Made by a program: the position numbers and the translations under genes
Assembly: GCA_038147155.1 (NCBI GenBank)
Contig: JAYQTA010000009.1
Location: 18,283-82,282, forward strand
Direction: 5' to 3'
Length of the DNA: 64,000 bases
From: Candidatus Australimonas brisbanensis
GTDB lineage: Bacteria > Chloroflexota > Dehalococcoidia > Lucifugimonadales > Australimonadaceae
Notes under the pieces: model-generated
What the model was told of the DNA's origin: nothing
Database searches by the model: none
The model's input: only the letters and a program-made list of their open reading frames with translations
Shown here: positions 16,572-40,816 of the stretch, one piece after another
Layout of the letters: the number at the start of each line of letters is the position of its first letter
Numbering within the stretch: position 1 is the first letter of the stretch

Positions 16572-18295
16572 CGCCGGATGCGCCGCGCGGCCAGGCCCGC
16601 GAGAACCAGGACCGACAGCACGCCCACCGCGGCCAGCAGCCCCAGCGCCGCCGCCTCCCCGGTGTGGTTCCCCCACAGCCGCCACACCAGGGTGCTCACC
16701 ACCAACGGCTCGCCCTCGCGGGTGAGCACCAGGGGCAGCGTGAGTTCCCGCACGGCCACCACCGCCAGCAGTGCCCACGCCGCCAGGGTGGAGGGGGCGG
16801 CCAGCGGGGCCAGCACCGAGCGCAGGACACGCACCGGCCCTGCCCCGGCCACAAGTGCGGCATCGCCCAGCGCCTGGTCCAGCTGCCCCAGGCCCGCGGC
16901 CTGCACCCGGTAGGCCAGGGCGATGCGGTAGGCGTAGGCGAGCACCAGCACCGCCAGGGGGGCGATGGGCGGCAGCCACAGGTAGAACACCAGCAGGCCG
17001 TTGGCCGCCAGCACCGCGGGCAGCGCCACGGATGACGAGGCCAGCGCGTCCACCCCCGCGCCCACGCGCCGGCCCACCACGCACATGCGCACGGCCCACG
17101 CCAGCACCAGCGCCACCCCCACGGCCAGGGAGGGCGCGGCCACGGCCAGCACCGCCGTGTTGGCCAGGGCCCCTGGCAATCGCGCATCGCCCAGGAGGCC
17201 ACGGTACTGGTCGAGGGACGCCAGCGCCCATGCCTCGCGCCCCGGTGGCAGGTACTGGGGTAGCAGGCTGGTCCACGCCAGCACCGCCAGCGGGGCCAGC
17301 GCGGTGAGGGCCAGCCACCCGCCCACCAGGCCCGCCGCGGGCCAGCGCCAGCGCCCCAGGGCCAGCGGGGCGCGCGGGTGCCCCCCGGCGCGCAGGGTGG
17401 CGAAGCGCGCGCCCTGGCGCGTGAGCCGGGCGAAGGCCCACACCAGCACCCCCGTCAGCGCCAGGACGTGCAGCCCCAGTGCGGCCACGGTGCCGTGCGC
17501 GGGTTGCCCTCCCACGGCGTCGGCCAGCGCGTAGTAGATGCGGGTGGAGAAGATGTCCGCCCCCGCCCCCAGCGCCAGCAGCAGCGGCACCTCGAACGCC
17601 TCCACCGTGAGCACCGCCGCCAGCGCCATGGCCCCCAGCAGGTGGGGGCGCACCGCGGGCAGGGTGATGTGCAGCGCCACCCGCCAGTCCGGCGCCCCTC
17701 CCACGCGTGCGGCCTCCTCCAGCGCGGGGTCCACGTTGCGCAGCGCGGCGCGGGCGAACAGGTAGAGGAGCGTCACCAGCCCAACCCCCTGCACGAAGAC
17801 CATCCCGCCCATGCTGAAGGGATCGAAGGGCCCGGCGCTGGCGGGCCAGGGCAGAAGCCAGCGCCAGGCCAGGTTCATCAGCCCCGTGCGCTCCCCCAGC
17901 AGGAGCACCCAGCCGATGGTCTGGGCGATGGGGGGCGTGAGCAGGGGGGCCAGCAGCACCAGGGGCACCAGGGCGCGGCCCGGCAGGTCGGTGCGCTCGG
18001 TGAGCCAGGCCAGGGGGACGGCGATGACGGTGCCCACCAGCACGGAGCCCGCCGTGAACAGGGCCGTGTCCCCGGCCGTGCCCCACAGCCCGCCGCCTGC
18101 GTACAGCCCCGTCACGTTGCCCAGGCCCCAACCGGTGCCCTGGGCGAAGGGCAGGGCGGTGGCCGGCACCCGGAACGCCCCCAGCGCCAGAACCAACAGG
18201 GGCGGGGCCACCAGCCAGCACGCCGCCACCACTCCGGCCAGGGCGGGCAGGCGGGGCGAGCGGAGCGCGCGGCGGAGGGCGGTGAGAGGTTGCAC
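16568..18295 (-). CDS. Fe3+/thiamine-type ABC transporter permease (FbpB-like, duplicated TM domain)
   Basis: LAWLTERTDLPGR, EAA loops LEEAARVGGA and LGDAALVAGA; GTG start 18295. Confidence 0.88.
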   Translation of the reverse strand: MQPLTALRRALRSPRLPALAGVVAACWLVAPPLLVLALGAFRVPATALPFAQGTGWGLGNVTGLYAGGGLWGTAGDTALFTAGSVLVGTVIAVPLAWLTERTDLPGRALVPLVLLAPLLTPPIAQTIGWVLLLGERTGLMNLAWRWLLPWPASAGPFDPFSMGGMVFVQGVGLVTLLYLFARAALRNVDPALEEAARVGGAPDWRVALHITLPAVRPHLLGAMALAAVLTVEAFEVPLLLALGAGADIFSTRIYYALADAVGGQPAHGTVAALGLHVLALTGVLVWAFARLTRQGARFATLRAGGHPRAPLALGRWRWPAAGLVGGWLALTALAPLAVLAWTSLLPQYLPPGREAWALASLDQYRGLLGDARLPGALANTAVLAVAAPSLAVGVALVLAWAVRMCVVGRRVGAGVDALASSSVALPAVLAANGLLVFYLWLPPIAPLAVLVLAYAYRIALAYRVQAAGLGQLDQALGDAALVAGAGPVRVLRSVLAPLAAPSTLAAWALLAVVAVRELTLPLVLTREGEPLVVSTLVWRLWGNHTGEAAALGLLAAVGVLSVLVLAGLAARRIRR

Positions 18296-29938: not shown

Positions 29939-30096
29939 CCCCCTCGCGCGCGCACGCGTGGCGTACGCACGCGCGATGTGCTATGGTTGTGCGGATTTAA
30001 TCGCAGATATCGCTGCGCGCTGTTGGCGTGCCACCAGATATGGGGTGATTGTCCCGCTGCCCACCGCGCTGGTGGGCCTCGCTGAAAGGAGCCCGC

Positions 30097-32730
30097 ATGG
30101 TTCTCGGTTCCGGCAACATCCGCCCGGTCCGCATCGAGGAGGAGATGCGCTCGGCGTACCTGGACTACGCCATGAGCGTCATCGTCTCGCGGGCGCTGCC
30201 CGACGTGCGCGACGGCATGAAGCCCGTGCACCGGCGCATCCTCTACGCCATGCAGGGCATGGGGCTGCGCCCCGGCTCCTCCTACAAGAAGTCGGCGGCG
30301 GTGGTGGGCGAGGTGCTGGGCAAGTACCACCCCCACGGCGACTCGGCGGTGTACGACGCCCTGGTCCGCATGGCGCAGGACTTCTCCATGCGCCACCCGC
30401 TGGTGGACGGGCAGGGGAACTTCGGCTCCGTGGACGATGACCCCCCGGCAGCCATGCGCTACACCGAGGCGCGGCTGGCGGCGGTGGCCGAGCAGGTGCT
30501 GGCGGACATCGATCGCGACACGGTGGACTTCGCCGACAACTACGACGGCTCCCAGCGCGAGCCCACGGTGCTGCCGACCCGCCTGCCCAACCTGCTGATC
30601 AACGGCGCGTCGGGCATCGCGGTGGGAATGGCCACCAACATCCCTCCCCACAACCTGCGGGAGGTGGCGGCGGCCATCGCGCACCTGATTGAGAATCCCG
30701 ATGCCACCGTGGACGACCTGATGGGGTTCATCCACGGGCCGGACTTCCCCACCGCCGGCATCATCATGGGCAAGGAGGGGCTGCTCCAGGCCGCGCACAC
30801 GGGCCGGGGCAGGGTGGTGGTGCGTTCGCGCGCCAGCGTCGAGGACATGGAGCGCGGCGACCGCCAGCGCATCGTGGTCACCGAGCTGCCCTACCAGGTG
30901 AACAAGGCGAGCCTCGTGGAGAAGATCGCCACCCTCTCCAAGGAGAAGAAGATCGAGGGCATCTCCGAGGTGCGGGACGAGTCCGACCGGGAGGGTCTGC
31001 GGGTGGTGATTGAGCTCTCGCGCGGGGCCGCCCCGGACCAGGTGCTCAACAACCTGTTCAAGCACACCACGATGCAGTCCGCCTTCCACGTGAACATGGT
31101 GGCCCTGGTGGATGGCCAACCCCGCGTGCTCTCCCTGCGCGCCGCGCTGGTTGCGTTCATCGAGTTCCGCCGCAACGTGGTGCGCCGGCGCGCCGAGTAC
31201 GACCTAGGCCGCGCCCGCGAGCGCGCCCACATCCTGGAGGGGCTGCGCATCGCGCTGGAGAACCTGGACGCGGTGATCGCCCTGATCAGGGCCTCCGCGG
31301 ACACGGAGGCTGCGCGCAACGGGCTGATGCAGCAGTTCGGCCTCACGGAGACCCAGGCCCAGGCCATCCTGGAGATGCAGCTGCGCCGCCTGGCCGCCCT
31401 GGAGCGCGAGCGCATCGAGAACGAGTACCGTGACCTGATGGCCCGCATCGCGGACCTGGAGGGGCTGCTGTCGGATCCCGCGCGGGTGCTGGCGGTGGTC
31501 AAGGACGAGACGGCCGAGGTGGCCCGAGCCTTCGGCAACCCCCGGCGCACGGAGGTGTGGGAGCAGGAGGCACAGGACTTCTCCAAGGAGGAGCTGACCC
31601 CCCACGCCGACGTGGTGATCACCCTCTCGGACCGCGGCTACGTCAAGCGGCTGCCCATCGAGGCCTACCGGCTCCAGCGCCGGGGCGGCAAGGGCGTGCG
31701 CGGGCAGGAGACGCGCGAGGGTGATGCGATCCAGCAGCTGGTGGTGTGCGACACCCATGACTGGCTGCTGTTCTTCACCGACAAGGGGCGCGTGTACCGC
31801 GAGCGCGTGTTCAACGTGAAGGAGGACTCCACCCGCCAGACGCGCGGCACCCCCGTGCAGAACTACATCGCCATCAACCCGGCGGAGGAGACGGTGACGG
31901 CGGTGGTGTCCATCACGGACCTAGAGGTGGACAAGTACATCTTCATGGCCACGCGCATGGGCGAGGTCAAGCGCATGGCGCTGGCCCAGTTCGCCAACAT
32001 CCGCTCCAACGGCCTGGCCGCCTTCGACCTGGAGAAGGGCGACGCGCTGCTGGGCGCCCGCCTCGCGGATGAGTCCATGACGGCCATCATGGTCACCCGC
32101 AACGGCAAGGGCGTGCAGTTCGCGCTCACCGACGTGCCGGTGCGTCAGACGCGCGGCGCGGGCGGGGTGCGCGGCATCCGGCTGCTGGACGACGACGAGC
32201 TGGTGGGCATGGACGTGGCCAACCCCGACGACCAGCTCTTGGTGCTGACGGTGCGCGGGTTCGGCAAGCGCACACCGGTCAACCGCTTCCGCACCACGGG
32301 GCGCAACGTGCAGGGGGTGATCGCCCTCAAGATCTCTGACAAGACCGGCTCCCTGGCAGGTGCGGTGATCACCGGGCCCGACGTGGAGGAGGTGATGGTG
32401 GGTTCCTCCAAGGCCATGGTCTACCGCACGCGGCTGGAGGAGATCCGCACCCTGGGCCGCAATACCCAGGGCGTCATGGTGATGACCAAGCTGGCCGACG
32501 CCGACCGCGTCATCTCCCTCTCCGCCTTCAAGGAGCGCTCCTGGGAGGAGATCCCGCAGCTGCCGTCCCTGGCCGCAGCCCCCAAGCCCCCCGCGGGCAA
32601 GCGGGGGAAGAGCGCCGCCGCACCGCCACCGCCCGCACCGGCCCCGCAGCTGGCGCTGGGCCTCGATGACCAGGAGCCGGACGAGCCGGACGCCGAGGAC
32701 GCCGCAGATGAGGAAGAGGAGGACGAGTAG
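30097..32730 (+). CDS. gyrA: DNA gyrase subunit A
   Basis: [29 protein letters not shown], GyrA-box QRRGGKG, acidic tail; ATG 30097 after AAAGGAG. Confidence 0.97.
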
Positions 32731-33712: not shown

Positions 33713-34606
33713 GTGTCCCAACAGCGGTTCGTGTACGGCGGTCAGGCGGTCATCGAGGGTGTGATGATCCGCGGGCGCAGCGCGTACACCGTCGCCGCGC
33801 GCCACCCCGACGGCTCCATCCGCACCATCCGCCGCCCCGTGCCCACCTGGAGCACCGGGCGCTGGCGGCGCGTGCCCTTCGTGCGCGGCGTGCTGGTGCT
33901 TGCCGAGTCGCTGGTGGTGGGCATGCGCGCCCTCACCTACTCGGCCCAGGTGGCCGCGGGTGAGGAGGAGGACGAGCAGCCCATCCCCGCCTGGGCCCTG
34001 GCGCTGACCATGGCGGCCTCCCTGGGGTTGGGCGTCGGTCTCTTCTTCGTCCTGCCCCTGGTGCTCACCCACTACGGCGTGGATCGGTTCACCGGCAACT
34101 CCATCCTCTCCAACCTGGGGGAGGGGGTGCTGCGCTTGGGCATCTTCTTCGCCTACCTGGGCCTGGTGGGGCTGATGCCATCCATCCGCCGGGTGTTCGG
34201 CTACCATGCCGCTGAGCACATGGCCGTCCATACCAACGAGCATGCGCTGGACCTGGAACCGGACAACCTGCGCCGGTTCCCCGCCGCGCACCCGCGCTGC
34301 GGCACGGCCTTCCTGCTCACGGTGATGCTGGTGAGCATCGTGGTCTTCGCGCTGCTGGGTACGCCGGACCTCCCCCTGCGCATCGCATCGCGCATCGTCC
34401 TGGTGCCGGTGATCGCCGGCATCTCCTACGAGGTGATCCGCTTCAACGCGGCGCACTCCGGCAATTGGCTGGTGCGTGCGGGGACCATCCCCTCGCTGGC
34501 GCTCCAGGCCCTCACCACCCGCAAGCCGGACGATGGGCAGATCGAGGTGGCCATCGCCGCCATGAACGCGGCCATCGCCGCCGATGAGGCCCCCGAGGCC
34601 GCCTAG
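33713..34606 (+). CDS. DUF1385 membrane protein
   Basis: YGGQAVIEGVMIR, YHAAEH, HPRCGTAF, LTTRKPDD; usual neighbour of rpmE. Confidence 0.9.
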   Translation: MSQQRFVYGGQAVIEGVMIRGRSAYTVAARHPDGSIRTIRRPVPTWSTGRWRRVPFVRGVLVLAESLVVGMRALTYSAQVAAGEEEDEQPIPAWALALTMAASLGLGVGLFFVLPLVLTHYGVDRFTGNSILSNLGEGVLRLGIFFAYLGLVGLMPSIRRVFGYHAAEHMAVHTNEHALDLEPDNLRRFPAAHPRCGTAFLLTVMLVSIVVFALLGTPDLPLRIASRIVLVPVIAGISYEVIRFNAAHSGNWLVRAGTIPSLALQALTTRKPDDGQIEVAIAAMNAAIAADEAPEAA

Positions 34607-34658
34607 GCGCACCGCCTGCACGCGCGGGCGCATCTCAAGACCAGTGAGGTGAGCCCCT

Positions 34659-35093
34659 ATGTCCAACGCCGGCGTCCCACTGAACCGTGTGTCCGTGGAG
34701 TGCCTCACGGGGTTGGCCGCCCGCGCCTCTGCCCGCGGTCACGTGGTGGTGGCCGACGAACCCCCCTCGGCAGGGGGCGCCGATGAGGGCATGCGCCCCT
34801 CTGAGCTGCTCCTCTCCTCACTGGGCGGCTGAATCGCCATCACGCTCCGGCTGTACGCCGGGAGGAAGGACTGGGCGCTGCGCGAGGTGCGGGTGGAACT
34901 GGCCCACCGCAAGGTGGAGGCGGAAGGTGGCTCGCCGGTGGACGAGATCGACGTCGAGGTCACCGTCACCGGCGACCTCGACGCCGCGCAACTCGAACGC
35001 CTGGAGCAGATATCCGGCCGCTGCCCCGTGGCCCGCACCCTCAAGGGTGGAGGGCTGCGCATCAGCGAGCGCCTCACCCACCTCCCGGCCTAG
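34659..35093 (+). CDS. OsmC/Ohr-family protein, probable selenoprotein (TGA codon 58 = Sec)
   Basis: One frame ATG 34659 to TAG 35093: ADEPPSAGGADEGMRPSELLLSSLGG[TGA]IAITLRLYAGRKDW ... RCPVARTL; TGA at 34830-34832 occupies the first catalytic Cys position. Confidence 0.85.
34845..34864 (+). promoter_or_regulatory. Candidate bacterial SECIS hairpin
   Basis: CTCCGGC-TGTAC-GCCGGGAG: 7-bp stem with one bulged G, GU in a 5-nt apical loop beginning 19 nt after the UGA. Confidence 0.7.
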
Positions 35094-35998
35094 CGCACGT
35101 TCACGCTGGCCGCCCCCACGCTGATGGACAGGTCCACCCGGTCCTGCGCCGTGGCGTAGTCCGCCGACTCCCACACGTCCCCGGACTTGGGGAAGCGCTC
35201 CGCGTCCACGCTTACTGACGAGAGCCCCGACGATGCCCTGATGCGCGCCGCCACCCCCACCGGGATGATAAGGGTGATGTCCGCCGCGCCGCCGCTCACG
35301 CTGGCGCTGAGGCGCCCGTAGGCGGGCAGCGTGATGCTCACGTCCGCCGCACCAACGATGACGGAGAGGCTCTCGATGGACAGCGCGGACAGGTCCACGT
35401 CAGCGTCCGCCGCGCCGATGTCCAGGTCCATCGCCATGGGGATGCCGCGCGCCAGGGCGATGTCCCAGTTCGCGTCGTTCTCACCCCAGCCGAAGGGCAG
35501 GTCGAGGAGGCCACCCTCGCCGGGCGCGTAGCGCAGGGTGGCCGTCCCGCCGGTGCGCTCTACCGCGGCGATGGGGTCCTTGCCGGGCATCACCTGGGTA
35601 GACTCGGCCAGCAGGCGTGAGTCCTCGGGAAGGGCGTTCAGGCGCAGCGAGCCCGCGCCGAAGTCCACCTCCACGTCCATGTGCGAGACGGGCACGATGC
35701 CCAGCGGCTCGTTCACGTAGAGGGTGCACATGCCCGCGTGGGTGGGGCCGATGAGCGCGGCGAGAGCGATGGCCCCGGCCAGCAGCGCCGCCACGATGGC
35801 TCCCGCCACCAGGGGCGCGCGCCGCCCCAGCACCAACTGCACGCCGGCGATGATGATCAGCACTGGCCACAGGCGCTAGAGTGCGCCCCACACGCCCCAG
35901 GCCACCACGCCGGTGGTCTGGAGCAGCAGCAGCGCACCCAGGGCCACCAGCACCAGGCCGCCGATGGGGATGCGTGAACGCCTGGGTTCCTTGTTCAT
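35090..35998 (-). pseudogene. LiaF/DUF5668-type membrane protein with C-terminal beta-repeat (DUF2154-like) domain; one in-frame TAG as sequenced
   Basis: ATG 35998 MNKEPRRSRIPIGGLVLVALGALLLL...GAL[TAG 35876-35878]RLWPVLIIIAG; C-terminal repeats LDIGAADADVDL, VSGGAADITL. Confidence 0.8.
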
Positions 35999-36887: not shown

Positions 36888-38186
36888 ATGCTGACCGCAG
36901 AGCAGAACGAGCGCCTGAGCCGGGTGGGGCCGGGCACCCCCATGGGAGAGCTGCTGCGCCGCTATTGGCACCCCATCTCCACCACCGGGGAGCTGGCCGA
37001 GAACCCCGTGCGCCCCGTGCGGGTGCTGGGCGAGTCGCTCACCCTCTACCAGGACACCCGCGGGCGGCTGGGGCTCATCGCCCAGCGCTGCCCGCATCGG
37101 CGCGTGGACCTGAAGTGGGGGATACCCACCGATGACGGCCTGCGCTGCCCCTACCACGGCTGGACCTTTGACGAGTCCGGCGCCTGCACCCTCCAGCCAG
37201 CGGAGCCGGAGAGCTCGCGCTTCAGGGACAAGGTGCGGGTGAGCGCCTACCCGGTGGCGGAGCTGGGCGGGCTGATCTGGGCCTACCTTGGCCCCGCGCC
37301 AGCCCCGCTGCTGCCGGCCTGGCGCCCCTTCACCGTGGAGGGGGCGCTGCGCCACGTGGCGGTGACGACCATCCCGTGCAACTGGCTCCAGTGCGTGGAG
37401 AACGCTCTGGACCCGGTGCACGCCGAGCACCTGCACGGCTGGTTCTGGGAGTACCTGTCGGCCCGGCGCGGGGAGTGGTCGGAGGCGCTGGGCGCCACGT
37501 TCGAGCGGCTCAAGCGCCCGCACTCGCGCATCGCCTTCGAGCCCACGGCCCACGGCATCAACAAGCGGCGCATCCTCCAGGGACAGGACGAGCACGCCCC
37601 CGATTGGGAGCACGGGCACCCCTTCGTGTTCCCCACCGCCGTCACCCTGGGCACCTCGGGCCTCTACCAGATCGAGATCCGCACCCCCATGGACGATGAG
37701 ACCACCTGGTCCATCATCTACCAGGCCTGGGTGCCGGGGCACGGCGTGGCGATCCCGGAGCAGCCGCACCTGGTCACCTTCGAGGCCCCGCTGGAGGAAC
37801 TGCCCTCGTACATCGCAGGGCAGGACATGGTGGTCTGGCGCGACCAGGGGGCCATCGCCGACCGCACCGAGGAGATGCTGGGTGAGTCGGACCGGGGCAT
37901 CATCCTCTTCCGTCGCATGCTGGAGGAGCAGATGGCACGCGTGGAGCGGGGCGAGGAGCCGATGAATGTGTTCCGGGGCCCCGACCCGCATCCCGCGCTG
38001 CCGCAGGCCTCCGAGGAGTACGGGCCGGTGAAGGGGTACGTGCCGGGCGCCGCCCGCCTGCGGACGGCGGGGCCCTTCAGCCCGCTCATGGATACCATCG
38101 ACGAGGTGCTCATCGCGGGAAGCCGCGCCGCGGAGGAGGCTGGTGTGCGGGAACGCGAGCGGGTGAAGGGGAGCCTGGACTACTAG
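36888..38186 (+). CDS. Rieske non-heme iron oxygenase alpha subunit (phthalate 4,5-dioxygenase/LigX-like group)
   Basis: GPGTPMGELLRRYW, CPHR...CPYHGW, ENALDPVHAEHLH, LGESDRGIILFRR. Confidence 0.9.
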   Translation: MLTAEQNERLSRVGPGTPMGELLRRYWHPISTTGELAENPVRPVRVLGESLTLYQDTRGRLGLIAQRCPHRRVDLKWGIPTDDGLRCPYHGWTFDESGACTLQPAEPESSRFRDKVRVSAYPVAELGGLIWAYLGPAPAPLLPAWRPFTVEGALRHVAVTTIPCNWLQCVENALDPVHAEHLHGWFWEYLSARRGEWSEALGATFERLKRPHSRIAFEPTAHGINKRRILQGQDEHAPDWEHGHPFVFPTAVTLGTSGLYQIEIRTPMDDETTWSIIYQAWVPGHGVAIPEQPHLVTFEAPLEELPSYIAGQDMVVWRDQGAIADRTEEMLGESDRGIILFRRMLEEQMARVERGEEPMNVFRGPDPHPALPQASEEYGPVKGYVPGAARLRTAGPFSPLMDTIDEVLIAGSRAAEEAGVRERERVKGSLDY

Positions 38187-39931
38187 GGCGTCGAGCGCTT
38201 GAGGGCGTCTGCCTCGGCCAGCAGCTCGCGGGCGGCCCCACCCAGGCTGGCGGAATCACCGCCCAGCAGCGCGGCAACCTCGGCACGGCGCCCCTCGGCG
38301 TCCAGCACCTCGGCCCCGGAGACGGTGCGCTCGCCGTCGGTGGCCTTGGTCACGCGGTAGTGGCGGTCGGCGAAGGCGGCGATCTGCGCCAGGTGCGTCA
38401 CGCACAGCACCTGCGCCCCGTGCCCCAGTGCCCACAGCTTGCGCCCCACCACCGCACCGGCGCGCGCGCCCACGCCCGCGTCCACCTCGTCGAACACCAG
38501 CGTGGGCACCCCACCGCCCGCCGCCAGCGCCCCCTTGAGCGCCAGCATCAGCCGCGCCGTCTCGCCCCCTGAGGCCACGCGCGCCAGGGGGCGCAGCCCC
38601 TCGCCGGGGTTGGTCTCCACCCGGAACTCGGCATCGTCCACGCCCCGGCTCCCGAAGGCCAGGGTGCGCCCACCGGGGCAGGGGAGCCCAGACGGGTCAT
38701 CGCGCTGGCCCAGCGCCACGGCGAAGCGCACCCGCCCCAGCCCCAGGTCGGCCAGCTCCGCCGCCACGCGCGCCTCCAGTGCGCGGGCTGCGTCGGCGCG
38801 GGCGCTGGAAAGTTGGCCTGCCAGCAAACCGGCATTCTGGGATGCGCTGGCCGCCTCACGCTCCAGCCGCTCGCGCAGCGCACCGGCATCGCCCGCCGCC
38901 TCCAGGCCCGCACGGGCGCGCTCGGCGAAGGCGAGCACCGCTTCCTCGGTGGCCCCGTACCGGCGCTTGAGGGAGTGCAGGGTGGCGATGCGCTCTTCGA
39001 TGGCCTCCAGGCGGCGGGGGTCGGCCTCCAACCCATCGGCGTGGGCGTGCAGCTCGTGCGCGGCCTCCTCCACGCCCGCGCTCGCCGCCTCCAGCGCCTC
39101 TGCCTGGCGGGCCAGCGCCCCGGTGGGGTCGGGTACGCGCCGCAGTGCCGCTAGCGCCTGGCCGATCAGGTCGGCGGCGTTCTGTCCCCCGGCGTACAGC
39201 GCCTCGTAGGCGGCGGCGCACGCCTCGCCCACCTCCTGGGCGGAGGCCAGCACCGCACGCTCCTGCGCCAGCGCGGCCTCCTCGCCGGGCTGCACCTGCG
39301 CCGCGTCTATCTCCCCCACCTGGAAGGCGAGCAGGTCCGCCTGCTGGGCCGCCTGACGCGCAGCTTCTTCGTGCCCGGCCAGCGCCTCGCGCGTCGCCCG
39401 CACCGCGCGCACCGCCTCGGCCACGCCCGCGCGCTGGGGGCCGAGGCCTCCGGCTGCGTCCAGCAGGGCCAGTTGGGTGCGCCCCTCCAGCAGGGAGAGG
39501 TGGTCGCCCTGGCCGTGGATGTCCACCAGCAACGCGCCCACCGCACGCAGCGTGCCCACGGGCACCGTGCGCCCGTTGACCCGCGCCACGGTGCGCCCAT
39601 CGGCGCTCACCTCGCGGGCCAGCGCCAGCACGCCGTCCTCGTCCAGTTCGATGCCCAACGACTCCAGCGCCGCGGCCCAGGCCGGGTCGGCAGGGGGCAG
39701 GTGAAAGACGGCCTCGGCCCCGCCCCGCTCGGCACCGGCGCGCAGCAGCTCACGCCCCGCGCGTGAGCCCAGCACCAGTTCCAGCGCGTCCACCAGGAGC
39801 GATTTGCCCGCGCCCGTCTCGCCGGTGATGACGTTGAGCCCCGGTCCCAGTTCCAGGCGCGTTGAGGCGATGACCGCCACGTTGCGGACGGACAGTTCGG
39901 TGAGCAGCGCCTGGGGGCGGGTGGGCGGCAT
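38183..39931 (-). CDS. recN: DNA repair protein RecN
   Basis: ITGETGAGKS, DIHGQGDH, ASGGETARLMLALK, FDEVDAG, VTHLAQIA; ATG 39931. Confidence 0.96.
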   Translation of the reverse strand: MPPTRPQALLTELSVRNVAVIASTRLELGPGLNVITGETGAGKSLLVDALELVLGSRAGRELLRAGAERGGAEAVFHLPPADPAWAAALESLGIELDEDGVLALAREVSADGRTVARVNGRTVPVGTLRAVGALLVDIHGQGDHLSLLEGRTQLALLDAAGGLGPQRAGVAEAVRAVRATREALAGHEEAARQAAQQADLLAFQVGEIDAAQVQPGEEAALAQERAVLASAQEVGEACAAAYEALYAGGQNAADLIGQALAALRRVPDPTGALARQAEALEAASAGVEEAAHELHAHADGLEADPRRLEAIEERIATLHSLKRRYGATEEAVLAFAERARAGLEAAGDAGALRERLEREAASASQNAGLLAGQLSSARADAARALEARVAAELADLGLGRVRFAVALGQRDDPSGLPCPGGRTLAFGSRGVDDAEFRVETNPGEGLRPLARVASGGETARLMLALKGALAAGGGVPTLVFDEVDAGVGARAGAVVGRKLWALGHGAQVLCVTHLAQIAAFADRHYRVTKATDGERTVSGAEVLDAEGRRAEVAALLGGDSASLGGAARELLAEADALKRSTP

Positions 39932-39937
39932 GGGCCG

Positions 39938-39943
39938 ATTATA
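39938..39943 (-). promoter_or_regulatory. Perfect -10 TATAAT 6 nt before the recN ATG (leaderless), overlapping the EamA stop codon
   Basis: Minus strand TATAAT-cggccc-ATG. Confidence 0.7.
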
Positions 39944-40816
39944 CGGCGCGTCTGCCCTCGGCCCGGGCGGCCACCACCGCACCGCCCAGTATCAGCACGG
40001 CCCCCGGCGCCAGCACCCAGCCGGGCACCTCGCCCAGCACGGGCACGGCCAGCAGCGTGGCGACCACTGGCTCCGCGCGCACCGCCAGCGTCACTGTGGT
40101 GGCGGAGATGTGCGCCAGCGACCAGTTGAGCAACGAGTGGCCGATGACCTGCGGCACCAGCGCCACCAGCCCGATCCACAGGTAACTGGCCGGTTCCAGC
40201 CCGGCCAACGGGCTGCGGGCGGCCAGCGCCAGTGCCAGCAGCACCAGCGCGGCCACGGTGTTCACCACGGTGGAGTAGGCCAGCACCCCCATGCGGGCGC
40301 GCACGCGCCGCCCCACCAGCAGGTAGCCAGAGACGGTCGCCGCACCCACCAGCGCCAGGGCATCGCCCGCCAGGTGGCCCTCCCCGCCCGTGGAGTCCAA
40401 CGCCAGGACGCCGCCTCCCGCCATGGAGAGGGCCACGGCCCCCCACATGAGGCGTGAGGGGCGCTGGTGGAGGAACACCGCCTCACCCAGCGCCACGAAC
40501 ACCGGCGTGGTGGTCACCAGGAACACGGCATTCGCCACGGAGGTGAGGGAGAGGGAGGAGATGAACGCGGCGAAGTGGGCCGCCAGCAACAGGCCGGAGC
40601 CCACTAGGGGGCGCGCATCGGCCCGGCGCAGGGCGCGCAGCCCCGCGCGTTGCCAGATGAGGGTGGGCAGCGCGATGAGCAGCGCCCCCAGGCTCATGCG
40701 CAGCGCGGCAACCGAGAGGGGAGGCGCGTCGGCCAGGCGGATGAACACCGCCGAGCCGACACCGCCGCCACGCCCACGGCGAGCCAGAGGACGGACCGGG
40801 AGCGGGCTTGGCCCAC
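39939..40816 (-). CDS. EamA/DMT transporter with an apparent -1 frameshift near the N-terminus
   Basis: GTG 40816 gives MGQARSRSVLWLAVGVAAVS, then a frame switch near 40757 to SAVFIRLADAPPL; LAAHFAAFISSL, QVIGHSLLNW. Confidence 0.8.

Follow-up and report, generated by a model that had tools for sequence, protein, structure and literature searches.

How should a reading frame be understood that is interrupted once, by a TGA, at exactly the place where OsmC and Ohr proteins carry their first, peroxidatic Cys? This question is raised by a gene of Candidatus Australimonas brisbanensis, a member of the Dehalococcoidia, in a stretch of 64,000 nucleotides that was analysed as a whole (hereafter the window). 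An original prediction, made from the letters alone, interpreted the gene as a hidden selenoprotein encoded by one frame of 144 codons, running from an ATG to a TAG, with the TGA as its sole internal stop. Re-reading the frame gave the same result. The TGA is codon 58, in the context SLGG-U-IAITLRLYA, and the second Cys of the OsmC pair was correctly reported to be intact; it is residue 122, in the context GRCPV. Standard ORF calling cuts the frame in two, as had been noted, and yields pieces of 57 aa (34659..34832) and 68 aa (34887..35093).

Only the N-terminal piece of 57 aa is present in the public protein collections (NCBI, JGI/IMG and Logan), where one record calls it a 'putative redox protein'. 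Hence, the full gene is hidden in current annotation. Dozens of Dehalococcoidia genomes probably carry the same mis-annotation, since the subfamily of this protein is beyond the reach of the curated selenoprotein model. The gene, its parts, its neighbours and other candidate selenoprotein genes are listed in Table 1.

Table 1. Positions of the OsmC-family gene and its elements, of neighbouring genes, and of further candidate selenoprotein genes. Positions are those of the window, except where a contig of the host genome (G000) or of a related genome (G031) is given.
Feature	Position	Strand	Remark
Full OsmC-family selenoprotein gene	34659..35093	+	144 codons plus TAG stop; single frame, one TGA
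Shine-Dalgarno-like GAGGTG	34646..34651	+	7 nt 5' of ATG; read from the sequence
Putative Sec codon UGA (U58)	34830..34832	+	At first, peroxidatic Cys position of OsmC/Ohr
Candidate bacterial SECIS hairpin	34845..34864	+	Inside the CDS; codons L63-R64-L65-Y66-A67-G68-R69
Hairpin, 5' strand	34845/6-34851	+	CUCCGGC
Hairpin, loop	34852-34856	+	UGUAC
Hairpin, 3' strand	34857-34862/4	+	GCCGGGAG
Cys122 codon (TGC)	35022..35024	+	Second (resolving) Cys of the OsmC pair; motif RCPV
True stop TAG	35091..35093	+	TAG is the commonest stop of the genome
gyrA, flanking	30049-32730		
DUF1385 membrane protein, directly upstream	33713-34606	+	52-nt gap
LiaF-like/toast-rack gene, adjacent	35090-35998	-	In-frame TAG 35876-35878
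Rieske/LigXa-like oxygenase, downstream	36888-38186	+	
recN, flanking	38183-39982		
selD, a selenoprotein itself	G000 C11:47299-48219 (locus L001)	-	Sec in LATCAGUAGKF; active-site motif CAGUAGK
Redoxin/AhpC-TSA selenoprotein candidate	G000 C3:242117-242716	-	FASWUPDC; in-frame TGA, Pfam over cut-off
GrdB-like selenoprotein candidate	G000 C10:25032-26234	+	TPTUPNC; in-frame TGA, Pfam over cut-off
Thioredoxin_3 selenoprotein candidate	G000 C11:~67700-68408	+	TPTUPHC; in-frame TGA, Pfam over cut-off
Different OsmC-like paralog (L045)	G031:C2:39077-39448	-	In-frame TGA, GVGGUTLTHY (UxxT); NF041052 81 bits, below 95

The host genome (1.87 Mb, 70.6% GC, 95.6% complete) contains the machinery for selenocysteine that the original prediction presupposes. 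The genes selA (506 bits), selB (342 bits, over model positions 2-579 of 581) and selD (387 bits) were all found with scores over the curated cut-offs, together with one tRNA-Sec with anticodon UCA, which scored 72 bits with Rfam and was also called by ARAGORN. The selD product is a selenoprotein itself, with Sec in the canonical motif CAGUAGK. A genome-wide GC3 scan for read-through TGAs was rejected as a census, as its 309 candidates were mostly antisense-frame artefacts and the OsmC gene was missed; only three redox-motif candidates were retained from it, after a Pfam check. These three candidates, with the motifs WUPDC, TUPNC and TUPHC, have hairpins with an NGU loop 3' of the TGA, at a spacing similar to that of the OsmC gene.

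The UGA might also be read in another way, as Trp or Gly under a reassigned code, by near-cognate read-through, or as Cys delivered by Cys-tRNA(Sec). The frame is open under any TGA-reading code, and insertion of Cys at Sec-UGA codons under selenium limitation is known in other systems. This possibility would also fit the low frequency of TGA as a stop, which the original prediction had pointed out and which we recovered in a crude count: among 1021 ORFs with a GC3 over 0.8 and a length of 300 codons or more, TAG was the stop in 652, TGA in 295 (~29%) and TAA in 74. Yet, TGA still terminates those 295 long ORFs. Moreover, a UGA-reading tRNA other than tRNA-Sec was not found in the genome; the anticodon UCA occurs in tRNA-Sec only, and tRNA-Trp has the anticodon CCA only. 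Therefore, the code is standard and TGA is a working minority stop. In addition, homologs have Cys in the column of the TGA rather than Trp or Gly, and the hairpin downstream fits the geometry of a SelB-type SECIS. We consider it very unlikely that this UGA is decoded as anything other than Sec.

At such a GC content, TGA is usually the commonest stop. The dominance of TAG in this genome may be tied to heavy use of Sec or to release-factor usage. ARAGORN also returned one tRNA-like call, at 17162-17233 of one contig of the genome, whose anticodon is given just as the two bases '(ca)'. In addition it called three tmRNAs; the one with the tag GERELALAA looks canonical, the other two do not.

Relatives of the gene alternate between TGA and Cys at this position, as the original prediction had anticipated. 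A homolog is present in 25 of 61 close relatives; exactly one in-frame TGA, located in the U58 column, was seen in ten core-family sequences, and ten other sequences have TGC in this column. Within the Dehalococcoidia order of the window, a homolog was found in 72 of the 401 sampled genomes, 58 of which have exactly one in-frame TGA. In every order member inspected this TGA falls in the window's column, and the remaining homologs have Cys there. Our nucleotide-level comparison took in 29 of about 58 Sec forms. The U58 column has TGA in these 29 distinct Sec forms and TGC or TGT in 90 distinct Cys forms. The search for related loci used five sequences and the pattern RLYA[EG]RK[GD]W, so that its sample is biased to one stem class of the hairpin; the best 80 named loci comprised 5 Sec forms and 75 Cys forms. 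All five Sec forms are Chloroflexota/Dehalococcoidia MAGs, in line with the 'Chloroflexota-like' organism that had been proposed, and the 75 Cys loci belong to Alphaproteobacteria, Acidobacteriota, Anaerolineae, Gemmatimonadota, Planctomycetota and Deinococcota.

These comparisons bear on the possibility of a pseudogene or an assembly error, where a nonsense mutation or a miscalled base would have turned the catalytic TGC or TGT into TGA. This change takes only one substitution, and other genes nearby have in-frame stops as well, such as the TAG in the adjacent LiaF-like gene. However, the same TGA column is present in an independent MAG of the same genus (83% identity) and in the 58 genomes of the order, which span many families, and the frame 3' of the TGA is open and conserved in all those relatives. 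Furthermore, the position-specific hairpin goes with the TGA and not with the Cys codon. Recurrence of the TGA in independent assemblies rules out both a sequencing error and a private nonsense mutation, and this explanation is effectively refuted; its remaining probability is negligible.

The in-frame TAG of the LiaF-like gene lies in the context GAL*RLWPVLII, in a frame that is open on both sides. An amber-reading tRNA (anticodon CUA) was not found in the genome by ARAGORN. The other neighbours of the OsmC gene are listed in Table 1, and among them no redox partner gene adjoins the OsmC gene.

The family tree places every one of the 29 distinct Sec forms in a single supported clade (SH-aLRT 95). 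The 45 sequences of this clade are from the window's order and include 16 Cys forms, interleaved with the Sec forms. Another 74 distinct Cys sequences come from other lineages, mostly other phyla. The tree requires at least eight changes between the Sec and Cys states, and at least two of these are forced by well-supported branches. Presence of selA showed a weak correlation with the Sec form, in the right direction: selA was over the cut-off in 14 of the 15 Sec-form genomes tested versus 13 of the 19 Cys-form genomes. In five genomes selA is neither present over the cut-off nor split into pieces, and each of them has Cys at the locus. For instance, in one pair of sister genomes, G041 has the Sec form and selA, whereas G099 has the Cys form and lacks selA. 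One genome (G052, locus L030) has the Sec form and the hairpin, yet no selA over the cut-off; this MAG is 95% complete, in 80 contigs, and the absence of selA is likely an assembly gap.

The original prediction also proposed a hairpin with a GU-containing loop, 19 nt after the TGA, with the geometry of a bacterial SECIS. The bSECIS model has an apical loop of 3-9 nt, an upper stem of 4-16 bp, a distance of 16-37 nt from UGA to loop, an obligatory G as the first or second loop nucleotide, mostly with a G or U after it, and an energy of -7.5 kcal/mol or lower (PMC13188914, Fig. 2A). The hairpin of the window agrees with the model on every count. Its loop is 5 nt long, its upper stem has 6 bp, the spacing is 19 nt, G is in position 2 of the loop and is followed by U, and the energy is -10.1 kcal/mol.

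On its own, the hairpin is not above chance in a sequence of 70.6% GC (z=+0.95 in dinucleotide shuffles; p=0.17 under a synonymous-codon null). Since folding of the single sequence is not significant, the significance of the hairpin comes from the comparison with relatives. Here, the Cys forms offer a natural control, because many of them encode the identical peptide (TLRLYAERK or LLLYARRK) from other synonymous codons. MFE z-scores against synonymous resampling shifted modestly between the two groups (-1.16 in Sec forms vs -0.20 in Cys forms), and a position-specific helix statistic was used in their place. An uninterrupted helix of at least 5 bp that encloses the GUA of the Tyr codon is present in 93% of the 29 Sec forms versus 6.7% of the 90 Cys forms. 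The Mann-Whitney test of this contrast gave p=2.5e-13, which is an upper bound on the significance; because the Sec forms come from one order and the sequences are not independent, such p-values overstate it. In the Sec forms the helix has a mean length of 5.8 bp, compared to 3.2 bp under synonymous-codon resampling.

Other measures point in the same direction. The apex NUG-UAY occurs in 28 of the 29 Sec forms versus 25 of the 90 Cys forms, and a stem of at least 5 bp combined with G[G/U] in the loop in 23 of the 29 versus 4 of the 90. With a looser helix criterion the contrast is weaker (27/29 Sec forms vs 23/90 Cys forms). Thus, the expectation that orthologs share the hairpin along with the TGA is borne out: the hairpin is common to the Sec forms and missing in most Cys forms.

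The stems of the Sec forms belong to three classes, which have the position of the 5' strand and the apex in common. Class A pairs CUNCGGC with GCCGNNG and encodes the peptide LRLYA[EGD]R. Class B pairs UCCUCC with GGAGGA around a 9-nt loop and encodes LLLY[TS]RR, and class C pairs CUCCUSAU with GUSAGGAG and encodes LLMYVRR. The three classes pair in different registers, and base pairs were tabulated per class. Covariation is apparent within the classes. Pair 17-31, for example, is U-A, C-G or G-C, and pair 20-29 differs between loci L131 and L146, with C-G in the one and G-C in the other, owing to synonymous substitutions in two codons (CUC to CUG for Leu, GUG to GUC for Val). Compared to the bSECIS consensus there is no difference in kind; what the window's family has is three alternative stems on one fixed apex.

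Membership of the OsmC family, as originally predicted, is supported by both the Pfam score and the predicted fold. When its U is treated as C, the protein matches OsmC (PF02566) with 64.8 bits and E=1e-17, where the gathering threshold is 27.5. An AF2 model based on 47 homologs (pLDDT 95.4, pTM 0.86) has the OsmC fold, in which U58 is part of the long helix formed by residues 47-69 and C122 caps the N-terminus of helix 123-130. The top Foldseek matches are all OsmC-like (2onf, 1vla, 1lql and E. coli YhfA 1ml8; TM 0.76-0.80). Both the model and these matches thus give an OsmC fold with the two conserved redox Cys positions. The part of the protein 3' of the TGA is conserved in relatives, where Q111, R114, C122 and P123 vary little or not at all; throughout the aligned core family, the second Cys never changes.

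Hydroperoxide reductases of the OsmC/Ohr type work with a pair of a peroxidatic and a resolving Cys. The family, the fold and the conservation of this pair suggest that the window's protein is a peroxidase as well, and this assignment is the weakest link of our explanation. It draws on the fold and the Cys pair, because the scores are far below those required by the models of OsmC, YhfA and OsmC_like_Se: 20.8 bits for the OsmC peroxiredoxin TIGR03562 (cut-off 85.8), 21.2 bits for the YhfA equivalog NF008009 (cut-off 138), and 34 bits, with 31-36 bits in relatives, for NF041052 (cut-off 95). An alternative explanation might be that the protein is a true selenoprotein that does not work as a peroxidase, with a Sec/Cys redox role such as the handling of disulfides or persulfides, or a regulatory redox switch. 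A role of this kind has already been suggested for proteins of the COG1765/YhfA type, and the low scores against the peroxiredoxin and YhfA models and the name 'putative redox protein' given to relatives by JGI are consistent with it. So are the extra DCxDCEE insertion of many members, and the closest solved relative, PDB 9wo1, which is the C-terminal domain of a fusion of 400 residues. Our literature search found no biochemical study and no demonstrated activity for any member of the window's OsmC subfamily, and nothing relevant on the 9wo1-type hydrolase-OsmC subfamily. In contrast, the two-Cys architecture and the fold match those of characterised OsmC/Ohr hydroperoxide reductases, and in enzymes that reduce peroxides, it is typically the nucleophilic peroxidatic Cys that is exchanged for Sec. 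A role other than that of a peroxidase therefore seems rather unlikely, albeit a serious contender.

The DCxDCEE insertion, a CxxC-containing segment of about 10 residues between two central strands, is present in many family members (e.g., L023, L026, L027 and L036). It occurs in Sec and Cys forms alike and in PDB 9wo1, but neither the window's protein nor its relative in the same genus has it. The segment might bind a metal or act as a second redox site.

Among solved structures, 9wo1 ('Osmotically inducible protein C'; OsmC domain 264-398 of 400 aa) is the closest relative by sequence, with 150 bits against the family profile, and YhfA follows far behind with 31 bits. The window's family and 9wo1 have LGACTAMTLRMYA.RK, the DCxDCE insertion and CPVH in common. 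However, 9wo1 has Cys instead of Sec and is fused to an N-terminal domain of roughly 260 residues, whereas the window's protein stands alone and is without the DCxDC insertion. E. coli OsmC and bacterial Ohr hydroperoxide reductases (e.g., 1vla, 1zb9, 1n2f, 6eb4) and E. coli YhfA (1ml8) have the fold in common with the window's protein (TM 0.6-0.8), as well as the two conserved Cys places, one within the long helix and the other capping the N-terminus of a later helix. Yet the identity is only 14-25%, and the window's protein is below the curated OsmC and YhfA cut-offs.

OsmC-like selenoproteins have indeed been predicted in metagenomes, as the original prediction stated. They were first reported in 2005 from the Sargasso Sea selenoproteome, with three sequences of COG1765 and the motif UxxT (PMC1088965), and a 2026 review still includes them, as PF02566 with UxxT (PMC13188914). 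The window's protein has the same Pfam domain as the Sargasso Sea proteins, the Sec at the first conserved Cys, and a SECIS just 3' of it with a G in a small apical loop. Even the name 'putative redox protein' that JGI gives to its relatives resembles the COG1765 wording in that study (PMC1088965). In contrast to the UxxT of OsmC_like_Se, the window's UIAIT and the UTAMT of its relatives read UxxxT, and the window is far from the cut-off of the NCBIfam model NF041052 ('OsmC-related (seleno)protein'). A different OsmC-like paralog with an in-frame TGA (L045) is much closer to that model, with U-T-L-T and 81 bits, than the window's subfamily. The genome of this paralog, G031, lacks a selA over the cut-off and has the core-family gene in the Cys form.

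The kind of protein is therefore already known, and what is new is a subfamily with a UxxxT motif outside NF041052. A bolder reading takes in both the subfamily and the hairpin. This would be an unrecognised Sec-OsmC subfamily, separate from NF041052 and widespread in one Dehalococcoidia order (about 58 of the 401 genomes sampled), with a SECIS written into the active-site helix. Its stem would have been rebuilt in at least three versions around an unchanging CUG-UAY apex, through amino-acid changes coupled to synonymous ones (LRLYAER, LLLYTRR, LLMYVRR), and would have decayed at each reversion to Cys. We put this joint reading forward tentatively, as one that may well turn out either way.

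For the gene itself, the Sec machinery, the orthologs, the hairpin and the OsmC membership all agree, and they uphold the reading of the internal TGA as Sec with which the original prediction started. It is highly probable that the gene encodes an OsmC-family selenoprotein, in which Sec58, inserted via SelB and the hairpin, would be partnered by Cys122 and would most likely carry out chemistry of the OsmC/Ohr type. The UGA at codon 58 would then be decoded as selenocysteine in a protein of 144 residues. SelB with Sec-tRNA(Sec) would bind the hairpin, 15-34 nt after the UGA, and bring Sec to the ribosome, where it would compete with release factor 2. Sec58 would take the place of the peroxidatic Cys on the long OsmC helix, with Cys122 as the resolving partner. 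Its selenolate would attack a hydroperoxide, or another oxidised substrate, to give a selenenic acid. Cys122 would resolve this to a selenenylsulfide, which a cellular dithiol reductant would presumably recycle.

This interpretation does not change our knowledge of Sec decoding and does not add a new kind of enzyme; a specialist would hardly be surprised by it. It corrects the annotation from a fragment of 57 residues to a full gene of 144 codons, and adds one more selenoprotein to a lineage already reported to be rich in them, with MAGs of Dehalococcoidia that have 46-49 selenoproteins in BSepDB (PMC13326102). The 29 Sec forms and 90 Cys forms, many with the same peptide, offer a natural experiment on the rise, remodelling and decay of a SECIS in a coding region. 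If the joint reading of subfamily and SECIS remodelling is true, constraints of RNA structure would dictate the residues beside the catalytic Sec.
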